This document shows positions 322 through 37,555 of a stretch of 39,308 nt of DNA, piece by piece (the first letter of the stretch is position 1; every line of letters starts with the position of its first letter). The stretch lies in the IMG/VR virus record IMGVR_UViG_2703718775_000026; one strand, given 5' to 3'. The notes under the pieces are model-generated. The model saw only the letters and a list, made by a program, of their open reading frames with translations. It searched no databases and was not told the DNA's origin. The translations under genes were made by a program, and so were the position numbers. This stretch comes from a virus. Taxonomy: Duplodnaviria > Heunggongvirae > Uroviricota > Caudoviricetes.

Positions 322-500
322 TGTAACCAGGTGAATCATTTGATACCAACGAGGGTTTTAGTGAAAGGAGGTGAAATCACCTGTAAGATACTGAAATAAA
401 ACAGGTGATGTCTGGATGAGCGCTTAAAGTCTATTTGATACCGATTGTGCAATAATTAATCGTTTATTCTAAAATCGGCAAAACTTTTGATACTGCGATC
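322..500 (+). repeat. Prophage left-end region (attL-like) with repeated TTTGATAC and TGAAA motifs, candidate transposase-binding sites
   Basis: TTTGATACC at about 339-347 and 434-442, TTTGATACT at about 486-494; GTGAATCA, GTGAAAGG, GTGAAATCAC and CTGAAATA between 331 and 400. Terminal TGTA resembles the Mu end TGTATTGATTCAC. Confidence 0.5.
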
Positions 501-8767: not shown

Positions 8768-9075
8768 TAACGACATTATTTGTTGAATCAGACGAGCCTC
8801 TGGTATGTGCCGCCGGAATGTCGGTTTGTGGCGGAACGCTGACCGGTGTTTATTTCGGGGATTTGCGCGGTTATCCCTGGCATTCACTGGATGACGCATT
8901 TCCGCCTGATATGGAGGCTGTCGTGCTGATTGTTCAGTATGGTGACCAACAGGAACTGCGCATCGGCCATATGGGGTATGAAGGCTTTTTTATTGATGAA
9001 GAAACCGGAGCCTGCCTTGAAGATGAGGACGGACAGGTGACGCACTGGTGCCATATTTCAGCTTTACCGGAATGA
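8764..9075 (+). CDS. Hypothetical early protein
   Basis: 103 aa; ATGA start/stop overlap with the upstream gene. Confidence 0.45.
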   Translation: MITTLFVESDEPLVCAAGMSVCGGTLTGVYFGDLRGYPWHSLDDAFPPDMEAVVLIVQYGDQQELRIGHMGYEGFFIDEETGACLEDEDGQVTHWCHISALPE

Positions 9076-9440
9076 CGGGAGGTGAGTGCGTGAGAAGTTA
9101 TATTGATAATGAAAAACTGAAGACAATCAGCGACTGTCTTAGCTTGCTGGCAAAAATAAAAGAAACCATTGAAGAGATTAAATTTCAGCTTGAATACGAA
9201 CCCTGTGGCGATGATACATGGCGTAACTCTGCCAGAAAAGCACTGGCTGTCTTTCAGAAACAACGCCGGACTGTTGAATACCGCCTTGCTGTATTGCGCC
9301 AGGAGGAAAAGGAAAGAAATATAAGACGTCATGAACTCGTTAATGATTTTCTTGTTCGTGAATTAAAGGAGCGTGTGCCGGAGTCGGTATTTTTTGAGTG
9401 TGAGGCTGTTGCCCGTAGCAAAGCACTGGAAACTGATTAA
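9072..9440 (+). CDS. Hypothetical early protein
   Basis: ORF 9048-9440; the ATG at 9072 overlaps the upstream stop (ATGA) and is preceded by GGA; predicted coiled-coil rich in K/E. Confidence 0.4.
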   Translation: MTGGECVRSYIDNEKLKTISDCLSLLAKIKETIEEIKFQLEYEPCGDDTWRNSARKALAVFQKQRRTVEYRLAVLRQEEKERNIRRHELVNDFLVRELKERVPESVFFECEAVARSKALETD

Positions 9441-9452
9441 ACAGGCAGGTGA

Positions 9453-15563: not shown

Positions 15564-17152
15564 TGGGACGTATAATTGATCTTGACGGAAAACCTTTCTC
15601 CTTTGACCCGGAGATGCAGAGCGCCGCGCTGGATATTCCGCAGATTGCCAGCCGTTATATTGAACATCCGGCCTCGGGTATCACCCCGAACCGGGCGGCA
15701 CAGTGCCTTCGCGGGGCTGAACGTGGCGATCTGATTGCCCAGTCCGATCTGGCCGCTGACATTGAAGAAAAGGATACCCACCTTTTTGCAGAGCTGGGCA
15801 AGCGACGCCTTGCCATTCAGGGGGTGCCCTGGAGTATTGAGCCGCCACCGAACGCCAGCGCGAATGAGAAAAAGGACGCGGAAATGCTCGACGAATATCT
15901 GCATTCCGCCGACTGGTTTGATGCCATGCTGTTTGATGCCACCGATGCCATCCTGAAAGGCTATTCCTGCATGGAGATTGAGCACGGGATGCTCGGTAAA
16001 ATGCACATCATCCGCGCCATCCGCTGGCGTGACAGCGGGCATTTCTGCCTTAACCCGGATGATTTGAGCGAACTGCGGCTGCGTGACGGCAGCCATGCCG
16101 GGGTGGCGTTTCAGCCCTTTGGCTGGATAGTGCATCAGTCACGTTCACGCACCGGTTACGGCGGCGCAACGGGGCTTGTCAGGACGCTTATCTGGCCGTT
16201 CATTTTCAAAAACTATTCCGTGCGCGATCTGGCTGAATTTCTGGAGGTGTACGGCCTGCCGATGAAGGTCGGTAAATACCCGTCCGGGGCAACGCCGGAG
16301 CAGAAAAGCGCCCTGATGCGGGCGGTGATGGATATCGGGCGACGTACAGGCGGGATCATCCCGGCCGGGATGTCGCTGGAGTTTCAGGCGGCAGCGAACG
16401 GTCAGGCCGATCCGTTTGAAACCATGATTTCGTGGGGGGAGCGTTCCATCTCCAAAGCTATCCTCGGCGGCACGCTGACCACGGAAGCCGGAGACAAGGG
16501 CGCACGTTCGCTGGGTGAAGTGCATAACGAGGTGCGCCGGGAAATCAGGGATTCTGATTTACGTCAGCTGGCCGCCACGCTGAACCGCGATCTGGTGTAT
16601 CCGCTGTATGCCCTGAACACCGCCCACGCCATTGATATCCGTCGCCTGCCGCGTATCTGTTTCCAGACAAAAGAGCCGGGGGATATCACCAAAATCACCA
16701 GTGCGGTGATGCAGCTCAGTACGGGGATGGATATTCCTGATCCCTGGGTACGGGAGCAGACCGGTATTCCACAGCCTGCCCCCGGTGAAGCCATCTTCCG
16801 TGTCCGTCAGAGTGGCAATGAACCTGCTCAGACAGACAAAGAGATGCCACCGGAAAAACAGGAAAAGACAGAGCAGACAGCGCTGGCTGCCAGACTGCCG
16901 GAAGCGAAGAGCAGCCCCCGAGATGAACTGGACGACATGGGGGATGCGGTGCCTGCCCGCCGGTTACAGGAGGCCATCGACCCGGTACTGGAGCCGGTCA
17001 TTGAAGCCATCAGAACGCGGGGGCTGGCGGAGGCACTGGCAGACCTGCCTGCCCTTTACCGTGAAATGGATGATTCCCGCCTGATGACGCTGCTCAGTGA
17101 TGCCATGTTTGCTGCGGAAATGAAGGGGATGCTGGATGGCACAGGGGATTGA
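15554..17152 (+). CDS. Portal protein (Mu gp29-like)
   Basis: 532 aa; follows the terminase; acidic C-terminal region. Confidence 0.7.
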   Translation: MLVVGRIIDLDGKPFSFDPEMQSAALDIPQIASRYIEHPASGITPNRAAQCLRGAERGDLIAQSDLAADIEEKDTHLFAELGKRRLAIQGVPWSIEPPPNASANEKKDAEMLDEYLHSADWFDAMLFDATDAILKGYSCMEIEHGMLGKMHIIRAIRWRDSGHFCLNPDDLSELRLRDGSHAGVAFQPFGWIVHQSRSRTGYGGATGLVRTLIWPFIFKNYSVRDLAEFLEVYGLPMKVGKYPSGATPEQKSALMRAVMDIGRRTGGIIPAGMSLEFQAAANGQADPFETMISWGERSISKAILGGTLTTEAGDKGARSLGEVHNEVRREIRDSDLRQLAATLNRDLVYPLYALNTAHAIDIRRLPRICFQTKEPGDITKITSAVMQLSTGMDIPDPWVREQTGIPQPAPGEAIFRVRQSGNEPAQTDKEMPPEKQEKTEQTALAARLPEAKSSPRDELDDMGDAVPARRLQEAIDPVLEPVIEAIRTRGLAEALADLPALYREMDDSRLMTLLSDAMFAAEMKGMLDGTGD

Positions 17153-18467
17153 TTTAGGTTATGCCGCCACCCTTCCCTCAAAAGAGGCGGTGGCATACTT
17201 CCGCGCCAAAGGGGCGCATATCAGCTGGAACTGGTTCGAAACAAACGCAGATGTTCATGCCCGTTCATTCACGGCGGCAAAAGTGGCACGCCTGGACGTA
17301 CTGACCACACTACAGGCGGAAGTGCAGCGTGCTGTTGATGAGGGGATTTCACAGAAAGCATTTATCCGCACACTGACACCCCGCCTGCAAAAGCTGGGAT
17401 GGTGGGGAAAGCAGATTGTGGTGGACAGCGCCGGTAACGCAGAAGAAGTGCAGCTGGGCAGTCCCCGCCGTCTGGCGCTGATTTACAACGTGAACACCCG
17501 CGTGGCTTACAATGCCGGGCGTTACACGCAGATGATGAACAACACGGACACGCATCCGTTCTGGCAGTATGTGGCGGTGATGGACAGCCGCACCCGCCCG
17601 GCGCATTCCGCCCTTAACGGGCTGGTATTCCGCTATGACGATCCGTTCTGGAATACACACTACCCACCCAATGGCTGGAACTGCCGCTGCCGTGTCCGGC
17701 CATTGTCTCAGGCCCGTCTGGATGCAATGGGGTTATCCGTTTCATCCGGTCAGGATCATCTTTCCACCCGCAATGTTGAGGCTGGCGTGGATAAGCAGAC
17801 CGGAGAAGTCAGAGAAATGCCGGTGACCACATATTCAGATGGCACCAGAACCATGACACCGGATGTGGGCTGGTCATATAACCCCGGTTCGGCGGCGTTC
17901 GGCACAGACCAGGCGCTGCTCCGCAAGTTGATCGAGGTGAAAAGCCCGGCGTTACGGGAAATGGTGGTTCAGGAGATGAACAACAGCCCGGAGCGGCAGC
18001 TGGCGTTCCGCATCTGGGCAAAAAACATCATGAAAACCCGGCGAGGCGGTAACGATATCCGCACGCTGGGCTTTATGACCGAAAGTATTGCGCAGGCGGT
18101 GGAAAGCCGGACGGGAACGCCACCGGCCCGCCTGCTGGCGATGAGCGGTAAAAATGTGCTCCATGCGGACAGCATGAAACATCAGAATGACGGCATTGCC
18201 CTGACGCCGGAGGATTTCGGGCGATTACCGGCAATGCTGGCAAAGCCAAAAGCGGTACTGTGGGATAAACGCCACAACAATCTGATGTATATCGTGGAAA
18301 GTAAGGATGGCAGTGTGCAGATTGCCGTTAATGCGCCGTACAGCCTGAAGCGTCAGCCGGATAAACTGGATGTGATTGTGAATGCTTACCGGGTTATCAA
18401 TATGGATAAGCTGAAATCGGATATCCGGGGCGGAATGCTTGAGGTACTGGAAGGAGATATTGATTAA
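17136..18467 (+). CDS. Head morphogenesis protein (Mu F / gp30-like)
   Basis: 443 aa; follows the portal. Confidence 0.65.
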   Translation: MAQGIDLGYAATLPSKEAVAYFRAKGAHISWNWFETNADVHARSFTAAKVARLDVLTTLQAEVQRAVDEGISQKAFIRTLTPRLQKLGWWGKQIVVDSAGNAEEVQLGSPRRLALIYNVNTRVAYNAGRYTQMMNNTDTHPFWQYVAVMDSRTRPAHSALNGLVFRYDDPFWNTHYPPNGWNCRCRVRPLSQARLDAMGLSVSSGQDHLSTRNVEAGVDKQTGEVREMPVTTYSDGTRTMTPDVGWSYNPGSAAFGTDQALLRKLIEVKSPALREMVVQEMNNSPERQLAFRIWAKNIMKTRRGGNDIRTLGFMTESIAQAVESRTGTPPARLLAMSGKNVLHADSMKHQNDGIALTPEDFGRLPAMLAKPKAVLWDKRHNNLMYIVESKDGSVQIAVNAPYSLKRQPDKLDVIVNAYRVINMDKLKSDIRGGMLEVLEGDID

Positions 18468-18552
18468 CGGTCAGTGGCGGGGGTCGAACCCGCATACATG
18501 ATCCACCCGGAGGCAGGCACCGACTTTACCAGTTAAGCGTACACTGACCGCC
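18468..18552 (-). ncRNA. tRNA-like structured element (acceptor stem plus canonical T-arm, no anticodon arm found)
   Basis: Minus strand reads GTCAGTG...GCGGGTTCGACCCCCGC-CACTGAC-C: a 7-bp acceptor-like stem and a T-arm matching the GTTCRANYC consensus. On the plus strand the same inverted repeat is followed by a T-rich tract. Confidence 0.3.
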
Positions 18553-18588
18553 TGCTTATTTTATATTCATATTTTATACGGAGGCAAT

Positions 18589-19062
18589 ATGTCATCCATT
18601 GATGCCGCCGTCGTTGTTGACGTTACGCGTCTCCAGCGGGTCTTTGCCCGGCTTCAGTTTGTGGGTGGCGGAAAAGACCTGGCCCGCAGTGTGGCGTCCA
18701 GCCTTCTGTCATCGTCAGAAATGGCGTTTGAACAGGAAAAAGAGCCGGACGGCGAACGCTGGCATGACTGGTCAGATCCTTACCGCAAGTGGCGTACCCG
18801 TAAGGGATACATGCCCGGCAAAATCCTGACGCTGAACGGCGATCTGGCCCGACGCCTGACCACGGATTATGGCGACACCTGGGCGCTGATTGGATCAAAT
18901 GAGCCTTATGCGGCCATTCATCAGTGGGGTGGCCTGCCAGGTATGCCGCCGGGACCGGCGGCCATTGGTGCACGTCCGTATATGGGCTTTGATCAGGTGG
19001 CAGAGCAGGAGATCATGGACGAAATCAGAAAACGCTTTAAAAAGGCCACAGAAACGCCTTAA
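18589..19062 (+). CDS. Virion morphogenesis protein (Mu G-like)
   Basis: 157 aa; motif IHQWGGLPGMPPGPAAIGARPYMGF typical of the phage virion morphogenesis family. Confidence 0.65.
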   Translation: MSSIDAAVVVDVTRLQRVFARLQFVGGGKDLARSVASSLLSSSEMAFEQEKEPDGERWHDWSDPYRKWRTRKGYMPGKILTLNGDLARRLTTDYGDTWALIGSNEPYAAIHQWGGLPGMPPGPAAIGARPYMGFDQVAEQEIMDEIRKRFKKATETP

Positions 19063-21353: not shown

Positions 21354-21707
21354 ATGAATGAACATCACACTGTGGCAGCAACAGATGATTCAGGTCTTCA
21401 GGTCAGTGGTGACAATTCTGTCACAGTGCTGGCAGAAGTGCGTTGCAGTCGTTCGGCGTTTCGTCGTGCGGGGTTCCTGTTCACGCGTGGACGTCAGCAG
21501 GTTGAGGTCTCCCCGGAGCAGCTTGCCCGACTGGAGGCGGAGCCATGCCTCACTGTGCGAATACTACAGACGCCTGCTGATGATGCGGGGAGCGTGGCGG
21601 GTGTGGTTCATGCAGTGGCCGGTACAGATTTAGCCGAAGCCGGACAGGATACTCCCCGGAAAAAGACCGGTAACAAAGCGAAACAGGCGAAAAAGGCCCG
21701 CGCATGA
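21354..21707 (+). CDS. Hypothetical head-associated protein
   Basis: 117 aa; GGAGGG RBS; lysine-rich C-terminus. Confidence 0.5.
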   Translation: MNEHHTVAATDDSGLQVSGDNSVTVLAEVRCSRSAFRRAGFLFTRGRQQVEVSPEQLARLEAEPCLTVRILQTPADDAGSVAGVVHAVAGTDLAEAGQDTPRKKTGNKAKQAKKARA

Positions 21708-22123
21708 ATTACGCCACTGAAACCGATATGCGGGCGCGTTACCGCGAGGATTTGCTCAGGCCGTTACTGGCTGTGCCCCGTTCGGATGAGCCGGACACGC
21801 GCAAGCTGAACCGGGCGCTGACAGATGCGTCAGCCCTTATCGACAGCTATCTGTCCGCCCGTTACACGTTGCCGCTGGAGGTTATTCCGGCCGTTCTTGT
21901 TCAGCACTGTTGCGCGATTGCCTTTTATTACCTGTGCGATCAGCGAGCCTCCGATCAGGCGCGTGACCGTTACCGTGAAGCGCTGGCCTGGCTGAAAGAT
22001 GTCATGAACGGCAATGTGCCGGTCGGTGTGGATACGAACGGTGCGGCCCCTGAATCCGGGGATTTACCACAGGTTCAGTCTGATGCAGCGGTATTCGGGC
22101 GCAACCAGAAGGGCTTCATATGA
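21704..22123 (+). CDS. Mu gp36-like protein
   Basis: 139 aa; overlapping start; conserved position. Confidence 0.5.
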   Translation: MNYATETDMRARYREDLLRPLLAVPRSDEPDTRKLNRALTDASALIDSYLSARYTLPLEVIPAVLVQHCCAIAFYYLCDQRASDQARDRYREALAWLKDVMNGNVPVGVDTNGAAPESGDLPQVQSDAAVFGRNQKGFI

Positions 22124-35225: not shown

Positions 35226-37283
35226 ATGAATATTATGACGTCCAAATGGGTTCAACTATCATCAATGCCCGGAAACTTTACCGTTAAAGTTTCCGGTGGT
35301 ACAGCGGCATTTCTTGAGGCTCCCTTTCCTCCTGCTGAAACGAAAGGAGGAATGACATTTGCTGACTGTCTCATCAGTTTTAATACACAGGATTGCCTGT
35401 GGGTAAGGCCAGTATCCGGTGATCCGAACGTGGAAATTACCGGAGCGGGTATTGGTGCTGTCATTCCGTTAAGTGCTGATGTTGCCGGTACTACTGAACC
35501 GTCAGACTGGGATAATGCAGAAACACATACCCGTCCGGCAGGAAATGAAACGGCTTCCAGCTCCCCTTCCTGGTATTACGTGATTGTTATAGCCGGCCAG
35601 TCCAATGCTTCATCTTATGGTGAAGGGTTGCCCCTTCCGGATTCTTATGATCGTCCTGATCCACGTATTATGCAGCTGGCACGCAGGAATACACAAACCC
35701 CCGGAGGTATTCCCTGCAAATACAATGAAATCATTCCAGCAGATCACTGCCTTCATGATGTTCAGAATATGAGTCTGCTGAACCATCCAAAAGCAGACCT
35801 GAAAAAAGGGCAGTATGGTTGTGTGGGGCAGGGACTTCATATTGCGAAAAAAGTATTACCGGTGATTCCTGCTGATGCCGGGATTTTACTGGTTCCCTGT
35901 GCCCGTGGCGGCTCTGCTTTTACAACCGGCGCAGTTGGCTCATTCGATCCGGCAAGTGGTGCAGCCGAGGCGTCACTACGCTGGGGAGTGGATACCCCAC
36001 TGTATCAGGATCTTGTCAGTCGAACTAAAGCGGCACTTGAGGCGAATCCAAAGAATGTGCTGTTATCTGTCGTATGGATTCAGGGGGAAGGAGACCTTAA
36101 AGCGACCCCGGCCCAGCATGGTGCCCAGTTTACTGCGATGGTGAAAAAATTCCGTGCGGATCTTGGTGCTTTCTCCGGTCAGTGTATTGGTGGTTCATCA
36201 GACAGTGTGCCGTGGTTATGTGGTGACACAACCTATGACTGGAAAGAGAAGAACCCAGCGGCATATGAAACCATTTATAGCGGATATAAAAACCGGGCTT
36301 CCGAGAACATTCACTTTGTTCCACTGATGCACGATGAGTTCGGTAATAAAACCGCGACCAACCTGCCGGAGCACGACCCGGATATCGCTTCTGCCGGGTA
36401 TTATGGTGCGGAATCACGGGGAGATGGCAACTGGACAACAGCATCCAGGGCAACCCATTTTAGCTCCTGGGCGCGCCGTTTTCTGGTCTCAGATCGTTTT
36501 GCATCAGCAATTCTTAAATATGCAGGTCTGACCTCTGCATTTATTGCCGGTGTGGCCCCTGATGGTGAAGCCCTGCCTCAGCCCGCGCCGGGTGGGAAAC
36601 CGGAAGCGCCGACAGGTAGTCAGCCAGGAGGCAGTGAGTCCCCCCATCCGACATCCCCGTCACTCCGTACGCTGCTTTCACTTAAAGCATCAGCAGGAGA
36701 AGCCCCGGCTCAGGGCTGGAAAATTACAGATGGTACAATCCAGCTGACGGACGAAGGTAAAGCGTTGACCGTATCCAAACAAAGCGGAAAAACCTGGGCG
36801 CTTACCCATGGAACTGATGCAGCCGGTGAACTTCTGAAGCATGGTGGTCAGTTGACCTGTAAATTCCGTCTGTCAGGTGAAGTAAAAGAAGGCCAGTTTG
36901 CTCTGGGTATTTACCTCCACACCGATACGGTCCCGGAAGGTGTAACCATGAGTGGTACAGGCACACCGTTCCTGATGGCGTATTATCTCCAGACAACAGG
37001 CGGCCAGTTAAATCTGATGCACCATAAAACAGGGGGGAATACGAAACTGGGATCATTTGGAGCCTACAATAACCAGTGGCATACACTTGTCCTGAAGTTT
37101 ACGGCGGGAAGTGCCCAGGTAACGCCTGTGCTGGATGGCACTCCGGGCCAGGCATTCCAGATGGTGAAAGATGCACTTTCCCCTGCCAAAGATACGCTGA
37201 CACTGACAGATGTCACCAAAGGGGCAACTTATGGCGTGTCTTTTGAGAGCGTTGTCCTTGAGGTTAATACCCCTGCGGCATAA
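35226..37283 (+). CDS. SGNH/GDSL-type esterase (sialate/carbohydrate O-acetylesterase-like) with C-terminal lectin-like domain; cargo protein
   Basis: 685 aa. GQSN nucleophile motif (VIVIAGQSNASSYGEG, nt about 35595-35606), WIQGEGD block and later His/Asp candidates; C-terminal ~200 aa with beta-rich, lectin-like composition. Architecture resembles prophage NanS-p-type esterases. Confidence 0.55.
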   Translation: MNIMTSKWVQLSSMPGNFTVKVSGGTAAFLEAPFPPAETKGGMTFADCLISFNTQDCLWVRPVSGDPNVEITGAGIGAVIPLSADVAGTTEPSDWDNAETHTRPAGNETASSSPSWYYVIVIAGQSNASSYGEGLPLPDSYDRPDPRIMQLARRNTQTPGGIPCKYNEIIPADHCLHDVQNMSLLNHPKADLKKGQYGCVGQGLHIAKKVLPVIPADAGILLVPCARGGSAFTTGAVGSFDPASGAAEASLRWGVDTPLYQDLVSRTKAALEANPKNVLLSVVWIQGEGDLKATPAQHGAQFTAMVKKFRADLGAFSGQCIGGSSDSVPWLCGDTTYDWKEKNPAAYETIYSGYKNRASENIHFVPLMHDEFGNKTATNLPEHDPDIASAGYYGAESRGDGNWTTASRATHFSSWARRFLVSDRFASAILKYAGLTSAFIAGVAPDGEALPQPAPGGKPEAPTGSQPGGSESPHPTSPSLRTLLSLKASAGEAPAQGWKITDGTIQLTDEGKALTVSKQSGKTWALTHGTDAAGELLKHGGQLTCKFRLSGEVKEGQFALGIYLHTDTVPEGVTMSGTGTPFLMAYYLQTTGGQLNLMHHKTGGNTKLGSFGAYNNQWHTLVLKFTAGSAQVTPVLDGTPGQAFQMVKDALSPAKDTLTLTDVTKGATYGVSFESVVLEVNTPAA

Positions 37284-37340
37284 TCGTGACGGCCGGGAAT
37301 TTATCCGGCTGTAACATCAGTTAATAAGAGTGAGGCTTAT

Positions 37341-37520
37341 ATGACATATATAAACGTCTGCCTGCTGTATTTCTGCACGGTGGTTTGTTGTCTGTTGCTT
37401 GTCAGCGGTGGTTATAAAATTATTCGCAATTATTTTCGAAATAAAATTGATGCAGCTGCCGAGGAAAAGATAAAAAGCGGTGCTGTAATGCCGCAGCCGA
37501 AAGACTCCGGTCAGATTTAA
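37341..37520 (+). CDS. Small hydrophobic membrane peptide (59 aa)
   Basis: ATG with GAGTGAGG upstream; MTYINVCLLYFCTVVCCLLLVSGGYKIIRNYFRNK... has an N-terminal TM helix and basic tail. Not in the ORF track (below the length cutoff). Confidence 0.4.
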   Translation: MTYINVCLLYFCTVVCCLLLVSGGYKIIRNYFRNKIDAAAEEKIKSGAVMPQPKDSGQI

Positions 37521-37555
37521 TTTTTTGTGAACCAGAAAAGGAAAGGAGAATATTC

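Follow-up and report, generated by a model that had tools for sequence, protein, structure and literature searches.

A putative non-decoding, tRNA-shaped RNA gene between the F and G head genes of Mu-like prophages

Non-decoding mimics of tRNA are rare in bacteria and phages, and few of them have known roles. Bacillus cereus reportedly harbors a non-decoding pseudo-tRNA, "tRNA-Other", which, like the species 1 and 2 RNAs of phage T4 and like mascRNA, keeps the tRNA fold outside translation. The members of this group possess a recognisable anticodon arm or CCA end and undergo tRNA-like processing. Small RNAs of temperate phages and satellites, such as C4 of P1/P7, CI of P4 and IsrK, combine a closing helix with variable hairpins and carry two target-pairing loops, with no D/T elbow; C4 and CI are said to be matured by RNase P. 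The tRNA-like domain of tmRNA is a tRNA mimic devoid of an anticodon arm, and the induction of the Mu prophage is said to depend on the tRNA function of SsrA (tmRNA). In YrlA and in the tRNA-like RNAs of gammaherpesvirus 68 the tRNA elbow is copied to engage tRNA-binding proteins or processing enzymes; YrlA, a bacterial Y RNA, is circularly permuted with respect to tRNA and binds Ro.

The element analysed here resembles each of these RNAs in part. It has in common with canonical tRNA (RF00005) a 7-bp acceptor stem, a D arm containing G18 and G19, a variable loop of 4 nt and a T arm with the loop UUCRANC; unlike canonical tRNA, it has neither an anticodon loop nor CCA, its position 73 is paired, an extra nucleotide follows position 9, and its transcript probably starts at the base of the helix with no RNase P cut. 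As in tRNA-Other, the T4 species 1 and 2 RNAs and mascRNA, a tRNA fold appears to be kept outside translation, but the ends are sealed, the anticodon arm is a stub, the gene travels as a mobile module with its promoter, and there is no sequence relationship with that group. With C4, CI and IsrK it shares the small size, the closing helix, the variable hairpins and the occurrence in temperate phages or satellite-like elements; unlike them, many of its alleles end in tetraloop stubs and no target was found. As in the tRNA-like domain of tmRNA the anticodon arm is missing; in contrast to tmRNA, the element lacks the G3-U70 pair, the CCA end and the mRNA-like part, and has a full D arm. The elbow likens it to YrlA and the gammaherpesvirus RNAs, and no gene named Ro was present among the annotated genes of the prophage or of the island described below.

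The stretch of DNA under study (39,308 nucleotides, hereafter the window) corresponds to an entire Sp18-type Mu-like prophage that interrupts comEC. Its gene set comprises a Mu-type transposase, a Mor/C activator, lysis genes, portal, F, G, protease and gpT, followed in the inventory by tail genes, an invertase, and Com with a DNA cytosine methyltransferase. The tRNA-like element is held in the 121-bp spacer between F and G, at about 18.5 kb of the 39 kb, that is, in the middle of the prophage. A 451-bp query that spans the RNA gene (window 18300-18750) matched 231 records; these came from 230 genomes out of 5,426 complete ones of E. coli. The carriers include Mu-like prophages in Shiga-toxin-producing strains of this species.

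The first-pass annotation had read the minus strand of the spacer as GTCAGTG, 48 nt, and GCGGG-TTCGACC-CCCGC-CACTGAC-C. These letters were confirmed, with G1 at 18548 and N73 at 18469, and the 7-bp acceptor-type stem and consensus T arm recognised there are indeed present, their stems covarying among relatives. Of the extent it had proposed, 18468-18552, the tRNA-like core occupies 18469-18548, and the remainder corresponds to four extra pairs that lengthen the terminal helix. Its statement that no D arm could be folded was mistaken, as a D arm with G18 and G19 in the loop is formed and is aligned by the Rfam tRNA model (Table 1). It was right in finding no anticodon arm, which turned out to be the defining trait of the whole RNA family, and in finding no encoded CCA: the minus strand continues with GUU, and this absence is likewise shared by the entire family.

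Table 1. Coordinates in the window of the tRNA-like RNA, its predicted promoter and the flanking genes
Feature	Position	Strand	Remarks
Gene F	17136..18467	+	Phage_Mu_F and MuF_C domains (Pfam)
3' trailer GUU	18466..18468	-	pairs with leader; two bases overlap the F stop, 18465-18467 (+)
Core tRNA-like RNA, 80 nt	18469..18548	-	RF00005, 31.0 bits; PGAP tRNA-OTHER; model R1, 92.7 bits
Acceptor-type stem, 3' strand CACUGAC	18470..18476	-	covariation
T arm GCGGG / UUCGACC / CCCGC	18477..18493	-	T loop equals the tRNA consensus; stem pairs covary
Variable loop GUAU, 4 nt	18494..18497	-	A15-U48 Levitt-type pair
Central arm	18498..18520	-	GUG-C-CUGCC-UCCG-GGUGG-AU-CAU; basal GUG/CAU, internal loop, C-G-closed UCCG tetraloop
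D arm, stem GCUU/AAGU, loop AACUGGUA	18523..18538	-	RF00005 D-arm alignment; A14, R15, G18, G19, A21
U8, A9 and one extra C	18539-18541	-	extra C follows A9
Acceptor-type stem, 5' strand GUCAGUG	18542..18548	-	pairs with 18470-18476; positions 2-5 covary (29 variants)
Predicted 5' leader GGCG	18549..18552	-	pairs with trailer; terminal helix 11 bp
-10 box TAAAAT (predicted)	18558..18563	-	9 nt upstream of G1
-35-like TTGCCT, 18-nt spacer (predicted)	18582..18587	-	complement of the G Shine-Dalgarno region
Gene G	18589..19062	+	virion morphogenesis family PF05069

A focused Rfam search matched RF00005 to 18469-18548 of the minus strand with 31.0 bits (gathering score 29, E = 9.4e-5). The alignment covers model positions 1-71 and skips the anticodon arm, placing 24 nt where the model expects 18; the curated threshold is exceeded in this focused search and arm-skipping local alignment only, and a whole-window gathering scan did not pick up the element. 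ARAGORN called no tRNA and no tmRNA in the window. Other Rfam families gave weak, chance-level matches in the focused search (STnc480, snoRNAs), the tmRNA, C4 and Y-RNA models did not match the element, and a 351-nt scan returned no C4 match at E values up to 10. BLAST of E. coli genomes revealed no close E. coli tRNA relative. In RefSeq, identical E. coli prophages have the same 80 minus-strand bases labelled tRNA-OTHER by PGAP, which leaves unannotated a one-base variant of the T loop (UUCAACC) present in about 80 genomes. No paper found by full-text searching describes the element; it is machine-annotated as tRNA-OTHER and otherwise uncharacterised.

Relatives were gathered from E. coli genomes by BLAST and from IMG/VR by three pattern scans; a scan of GTDB species representatives yielded Edwardsiella anguillarum and Citrobacter braakii only, and a metagenome scan yielded 22 loci. 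Twenty-nine distinct variants were parsed from this collection, which is dominated by Enterobacterales. A covariance model, R1, built on 16 variants, recovers all copies at 52-94 bits, the L087b/L115 type scoring weaker at about 36 bits, and detects a single copy in the window. Mu, D108, SfMu, the Yersinia Mu-like phages and the phage L076 have no copy, nor do the loci of three distant G homologues (L078-L080). The F and G genes of Mu, which is without the element, share an ATGA overlap and presumably have coupled translation.

The three stems of the tRNA-like body covary. In a 16-sequence alignment 96% of the cells are paired and compensatory changes occur at 7 of 16 pairs; none of 500 shuffles attained the observed pairing and compensatory values, and sliding the partner strand by 1-3 columns left two compensatory pairs at most. 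Among the 29 variants each of the acceptor pairs 2-5 occurs as three to five standard pair types (for example GUCAGUG/CACUGAC, GCCGGUG/CACCGGC, GUUGAUG/CAUUAAC and GCUGGUG/CACCAGC). The D-stem pairs 11:24, 12:23 and 13:22 are formed in all 29, with 13:22 changed from UA to CG in four of them; in the T stem 50:64 and 51:63 covary (CG to UA, GC to AU), and 49:65 is a G-U pair in four variants. Essentially no variation is seen in the D loop (A14, A15, G18, G19, A21), at U8 and U48 or in the T loop UUCRANC, and the variable loop reads GUAU, UUAU, GUAC or UUUU across all variants; the near-invariance of these core and loop positions implies that the core and elbow of a tRNA have kept their sequence hallmarks. 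The D loop and T arm stay nearly unchanged while the adjacent F protein drops to about 30-45% identity. A small open reading frame was discarded as the conserved feature, since the ATG codons around the variable loop stand in different frames, reckoned from the T arm, in one scaffold type and the other, and no conserved peptide results.

These data bear on the idea, also put forward in the first-pass annotation, that the locus is a tRNA remnant. It is true that tRNA finders either miss the element or call it "undetermined", and such calls often correspond to tRNA fragments (bioRxiv 10.1101/2022.07.05.498093). However, both halves of the cloverleaf are intact, compensatory changes have accumulated in three stems, the promoter is conserved, and the RNA is retained in phages of E. 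coli, Citrobacter and Edwardsiella and in metagenome contigs. A tRNA fragment at an attachment site is not expected, because the host element is a transposing Mu-like phage, and what was found is a complete cloverleaf lying in the middle of the prophage. We therefore see very little chance that this is a functionless, decaying tRNA gene or a relic of integration.

The choice of strand was made on three grounds. Within the acceptor, D and T stems of the 29 variants, 13 G-U pairs stand against 2 A-C oppositions, which indicates that the minus strand is the one that folds, as the plus strand would carry 13 mismatches. Folding of the minus strand gives the 11-bp terminal helix. Minimum free energies did not separate the strands, being similar when summed over 19 variants (-504 vs -497 kcal/mol), and were set aside as indecisive. 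The assignment consequently rests on the G-U pairs, the loop consensus and the promoter. The first-pass annotation had considered the opposite option as well, namely a plus-strand hairpin serving as terminator or processing site within the late operon, on account of the long helix that is followed by a T-rich stretch in the window; the plus strand also folds almost as well as the minus strand. Such a function, or that of an attenuator, is extremely doubtful: on the plus strand the 13 G-U pairs turn into A-C mismatches, and the D- and T-loop consensus and the UNCG caps are legible on the minus strand only. The conserved -10 box of the minus strand, read in complement, accounts for the T-rich tract; U-richness beside the helix is not conserved among relatives, and in the lineages L046 and L077 the tract is neither adjacent to the helix nor U-rich. 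In addition, our scan gave no plus-strand intrinsic terminator at the site, and the module was found in two other genomic contexts. What held of the first-pass options is the tRNA-like RNA, to which the three covarying stems, the canonical D and T loops, the G-U pairs confined to the minus strand, the UNCG/GNRA caps and the conserved promoter all point; of the checks it had named, the covariance-model search gave the RF00005 match described above, and conservation was found in related prophages.

Where a tRNA has its anticodon arm, every variant has a central region that folds alone as a single closed hairpin. As this region cannot be aligned, its covariation was judged on folds of the individual sequences. 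Two or three basal pairs covary (GUG/CAU, GCA/UGU, AC/GU, ACG/CGU, CAA/UUG), and above them sequence and length are unrelated between alleles. The arm of Sakai Sp18, for instance, whose element is located between ECs_4971 and ECs_4972 of O157:H7 Sakai (region 5058640-5058760 of NC_002695.2), is ACCC-UCAG-GGGU, and the other caps comprise UUCG (in five lineages), UCCG, UCAA, GUAA, CAU and AUU. The predicted loops of the 26 folded variants have 3, 4, 5, 6, 9, 10, 14 or 18 nt, those of 9-18 nt belonging to the longer arms, and none is a 7-nt anticodon loop. Close alleles exchange loop letters under a stable tetraloop (UCCG/UUCG in one case, UCAG/UCAA/UCCG/UUCG in another), so a structural stub fits better than a recognition loop.

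It follows from the missing anticodon loop, the inclusion of position 73 in a helix and the absence of CCA that the RNA should be unable to decode. No 5-bp anticodon stem carrying a 7-nt loop with U33 was found in the 26 folded variants, and none of the 29 variants has an unpaired position 73 followed by an encoded CCA. Variation is free at acceptor positions 2:71 to 5:68 as well as at 73, and hence no identity set for an aminoacyl-tRNA synthetase, whether at position 73 or in the first acceptor pairs, is conserved in the 29 variants. Aminoacylation in any conserved way is thus unlikely, given that positions 2-5 and 73 vary, that 73 is paired and that no CCA is present. A chargeable, decoding tRNA with an unusual anticodon arm could be argued from the PGAP label of tRNA-Tyr on one island copy, whose loop is UGUACA; this label is most likely a misannotation, the GUA lying within a 6-nt palindromic loop, and against the features just listed a functional tRNA is scarcely credible. 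At 3:70, where tmRNA has its G-U pair, 25 of the 29 variants have C-G or U-A and only one has G-U.

The variable arm raises the alternative of a scaffolded regulatory RNA, in which the tRNA-like body would provide stability and processing and the hypervariable arm would determine target specificity. Such an RNA would be comparable to the immunity RNAs C4 (P1/P7) and CI (P4), and tandem arrays of it would represent several specificities. Consistent with this proposal, the arms are wholly different between phages that are otherwise 97-98% identical, arrays in the island join two or three arms to one acceptor stem, and the longer arms expose loops of 9-18 nt. However, many alleles are stubs of 3-5 bp with UNCG or GNRA caps, which make poor pairing surfaces; loop letters drift among close alleles (UCAG, UCAA, UCCG, UUCG), and the Rfam C4 model does not match. 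When the whole window and Sp18 were scanned, in a crude way, with RNAduplex, no trans target of the variable arm rose above shuffled controls, the trivial cis-antisense site alone exceeding them. We regard target recognition through the arm as rather unlikely.

The predicted 5' end of the RNA coincides with the base of its terminal helix. The terminal helix extends beyond the acceptor stem, with pair -1:73 formed in 24 of the 29 variants and -2:74 in 23, by several pair types. A G-1:C73 identity of the histidine-tRNA kind was considered and dropped, since the pair is merely part of the longer extension and position 73 varies. The -10 box TAAAAT (TACAAT in one allele) stands 8-10 nt from G1 in the alleles of the E. 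coli and Citrobacter types and is maintained while the surrounding spacer diverges; in the majority of the distant lineages the box is TATACT or TATATT, 8-14 nt from G1. L113 has a weak box (TATGCT), and in L077 and L099 no -10 box was found. The number of bases between the -10 box and G1 (d) is matched by the length of the paired extension: 2 bp at d = 8 (10 variants), 4-5 bp at d = 9, 3-4 bp at d = 10 and 7-8 bp at d = 14, two cases with d = 11 fitting this trend more poorly. As the extension tracks d, a start 6-8 nt after the -10 box would coincide with the first nucleotide of the helix. In single-copy genes the primary 5' end would then also be the mature 5' end, within a sealed terminal helix of 9-15 bp. 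For the window this predicts a discrete RNA of about 85-95 nt that would carry a 5'-triphosphate at 18551/18552, and the copies of tandem arrays would have to be separated by endonucleolytic cuts. On the minus strand of the window and of Sp18 no intrinsic terminator was found 3' of the RNA gene, and the 3' end would come from trimming back to the helix. A minus-strand terminator candidate at 18157-18181 of the window was rejected because it is weak, was not found in Sp18 and occurs at the rate expected from shuffles.

The most frequent context of the module is the one seen in the window, that is, the F stop, the element on the opposite strand and the G start, in Mu-like phages whose F proteins are 36-100% identical to that of the window; a metagenome contig (L087) whose F is about 30% identical in its C-terminal region also has the F-G context. 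This persistence, together with the orientation, suggests a cis-antisense regulator, with the RNA or its transcription controlling the late mRNA at the F-G junction. RNase III might, for instance, cut the duplex, the translation of G might be uncoupled, or the two transcriptions might interfere in the lysogen. The overlap of the -35 box with the Shine-Dalgarno region of G, and the overlapping, presumably coupled F and G genes of the element-free Mu, agree with that idea, and the maintenance of the F-G position over deep divergence could reflect a cis role rather than simple synteny. In contrast, the RNA itself does not overlap the ribosome-binding site of G, and a tRNA core, D- and T-loop consensus and covarying stems would be superfluous for an antisense RNA. 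Furthermore, the module occurs where F and G are not its neighbors. In L109/L114, another Mu-like phage (gpT), it lies downstream of gpT and the head genes and runs against them, and 210 nt separate it from a DUF2971 gene, downstream of it, that matches the PADLOC defence candidate PDC-S31 (E = 1.6e-27), and it is also present in island arrays without F or G. The mobility of the module among accessory slots speaks for action in trans and against a purely cis role at F-G, and we judge the cis-antisense explanation improbable. A general link between the RNA and DUF2971/PDC-S31 was discarded, as this gene was found in L109/L114 only.

A different connection with F was suggested by the comparison of the window with Sp18. 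The two prophages are 97-98% identical except at a few spots, one of which, window 18200-18600, is about 29% divergent; it is a single exchanged cassette of about 400 bp, made up of the RNA gene and the final ~90 codons of F. Moreover, the C-terminal alleles of F track the type of RNA scaffold in two clades, with about 72% identity of their G proteins. The RNA might accordingly bind the fast-evolving MuF_C domain and serve in head morphogenesis, or be packaged and injected, with the RNAs of a satellite matching the capsids of its helpers; the presence of both scaffold types in the island arrays would accord with this. The co-variation may, however, be mere linkage, as physical proximity by itself accounts for it; Mu and L076 have MuF_C and no RNA, and in L109/L114 the RNA is away from F. 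A special RNA-binding domain in F was also looked for and rejected, the C terminus being an ordinary MuF_C that is also present in the RNA-less Mu and L076. A partnership between the RNA and F is, in our estimation, very improbable, and so is its wider version, in which the RNA would be a cofactor common to helper and satellite that partners the C terminus of F (the "DNA pilot"), the arrays allowing the satellite to exploit either kind of helper.

The arrays consist of two or three tandem copies at the cargo end of an island of about 8 kb, inserted adjoining tRNA-Ile or near ligB. The island encodes an integrase, an HTH protein, Ash, an Icd-like protein, DUF4222, a RepA helicase, SSB, PerC and Mor, and has no F or G; OkiPb01678 is one of the strains that carry it. 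Its copies have in common the acceptor stem GCUGGUG/CACCAGC, differ in their arms and represent both scaffold types of the phages. A promoter was predicted at the first copy only (TTTACC-17-TACTAT), and the helix begins at its predicted transcription start. As genes, island and prophage have only two features in common, the tRNA-like RNA and a late activator of the Mor/C type (47% identity). Upstream of the array there are GTGAAAGAAGGTGAAA repeats and CAGGTGAAATAATGATACC, which resemble the left terminus of the prophage, TGTAACCAGGTGAATCATTTGATACC...AGTGAAAGGAGGTGAAATCAC; TTTGATACC repeats recur at both prophage ends. The array is carried by 14 of 5,426 E. coli genomes, and at least 7 of these 14 also have the Mu-like prophage, against a background of about 4%, a count that ignores strain relatedness. 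As judged from these sequence features, the island is likely a satellite of these Mu-like phages.

Taken together, we consider it probable that the locus is a gene for a small, non-decoding, tRNA-shaped RNA that has its own promoter, travels as a mobile moron in Mu-like phages and acts in trans. The predicted promoter, the variable presence among related phages and the alternative slot in L109/L114 are those of a moron. Sequence comparison shows the structure, its conservation, the strand that folds, the promoter geometry and the genomic contexts; from these we infer expression, unprocessed ends and action in trans. The RNA would be transcribed from a sigma-70-type promoter on the strand that opposes the late operon, probably in the lysogen because this operon is then silent, and the transcript would begin at the first nucleotide of the 9-15-bp terminal helix. 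Its predicted cloverleaf would retain U8, A14, A15/U48, G18 G19 and the T loop UUCRANC, with the anticodon arm replaced by a structurally inert hairpin, often capped by a tetraloop, and the RNA would work in trans by means of its tRNA shape. As to how, we tentatively guess that it serves as a stable mimic that decoys, or competes for, a protein recognising the tRNA elbow and the acceptor-T helix, perhaps a tRNA-directed nuclease, a toxin or a tRNA-handling enzyme, in the setting of conflicts between phage, host and satellite or of lysogen physiology. Loss of the anticodon loop would keep such an RNA off the ribosome and beyond the reach of anticodon nucleases.

Separately, it should be mentioned that the acceptor stem is uniform within the island arrays and different between lineages, a pattern that a pure shape decoy does not predict.

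In summary, the RNA family is clearly supported by its evolution and has an unusual architecture: a stub stands where the anticodon arm would be, and the ends are sealed from the predicted transcription start. Its distribution, in phage accessory slots, next to a defence candidate and in satellite-like arrays, points to a role in trans in conflicts among mobile elements. The tRNA-OTHER label, given in hundreds of RefSeq genomes and sometimes wrongly replaced by tRNA-Tyr, inflates their tRNA counts, and the family could be curated as a separate RNA family. Should the readings that involve F as a partner and the island as a satellite be true, the RNA would constitute an RNA component in the head pathway of a myovirus, and the island, with its helpers, the first described satellite system of transposable phages.

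In the prophages compared, the tRNA-like RNA gene lying between head genes F and G is part of a cassette (window 18200-18600) that has diverged by about 29% and comprises this gene together with the last ~90 codons of F, which encode the MuF_C domain; prophages that differ here are 97-98% identical elsewhere. The RNA scaffold type and the F C-terminal alleles co-vary in two clades. Comparison with Sp18, a Mu-like prophage of E. coli O157:H7 Sakai, gave further hot spots of divergence or replacement, among them a segment of the early region, the 3' portion of the HI1506-related gene that follows gpT and, near the right end, the region of the large DUF6645 gene. Near the cassette border, about 290 nt 3' of the RNA gene, there is a terminator-like hairpin; a counterpart was looked for in Sp18 and not found, and the frequency of such hairpins equals the chance expectation.

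Coordinates of the features discussed
Feature	Location	Remarks
Terminator-like hairpin	window 18157-18181	minus strand; 10 pairs, tail CATTTTTACC
Divergence/replacement hot spots	window 8773-9441, 21600-21800, 35600-37540	versus Sakai Sp18
Two tRNA-like copies	L087 122-194 and 756-830	1.1-kb metagenome contig
Class II-like tRNA	L019 3778-3867; L033 7197-7286	gut-virome contigs
tRNA-like module and DUF2971 gene	L114 2294-3765 = L109 11859-13330	another Mu-like phage
~8-kb island	L107 2480-10700	E. coli JNEC-KY179
Same island	L093, L096, L100 and L102 1132-1433	
PGAP 'tRNA-Tyr' island copy	L107 2507-2588	equivalent copies in other genomes

In one metagenome contig, the segment coding for the F C-terminal domain sits between two tRNA-like copies, and the type of the weaker copy, scoring about 36 bits in our covariance model, was found again between F and G in L115 (5610-5681). 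A class II-like tRNA found in two gut-virome contigs ends in an encoded ACCA; its T arm GUGGGUUCGACCCCCAC is identical to that of one allele of the tRNA-like family, and it has the UAUG junction in common with it. Unlike the family, however, it has a loop of the normal 7 nt (UUUAUAA), and its variable arm is long. This tRNA may be a relative of the family's ancestor.

The RNA also occupies other positions. In another Mu-like phage the module lies on the opposite strand, downstream of gpT and 210 nt upstream of the gene of a DUF2971 protein that matches the PADLOC defence candidate PDC-S31 (E = 1.6e-27).

Two to three tRNA-like genes in tandem form the end of an ~8-kb E. coli island that encodes an integrase, HTH, Ash, two Icd-like proteins, DUF4222, a RepA helicase, SSB, PerC and a Mor-family activator. 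PGAP labelled one copy tRNA-Tyr because GUA falls within its 6-nt palindromic loop (CAGCC-UGUACA-GGCUG); this copy is very likely a misannotated, anticodon-less family member. Upstream of the array (L107 2770-2860, minus strand), GTGAAAGAAGGTGAAA repeats and CAGGTGAAATAATGATACC are similar to the left end of the prophage, TGTAACCAGGTGAATCATTTGATACC ... AGTGAAAGGAGGTGAAATCAC, as compared with window 323-400 and L106 39100-39230. This terminus is where we would expect the transposase-binding and pac sites. The island stretch may mimic an end or a pac site. Apart from the tRNA-like RNA, the only thing that the island has in common with the Mu-like prophage is a Mor/C homologue (47% identity); this prophage is co-present in at least half of the 14 island-bearing E. 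coli genomes. The island appears to be a satellite of Mu-like phages that has not been described before.
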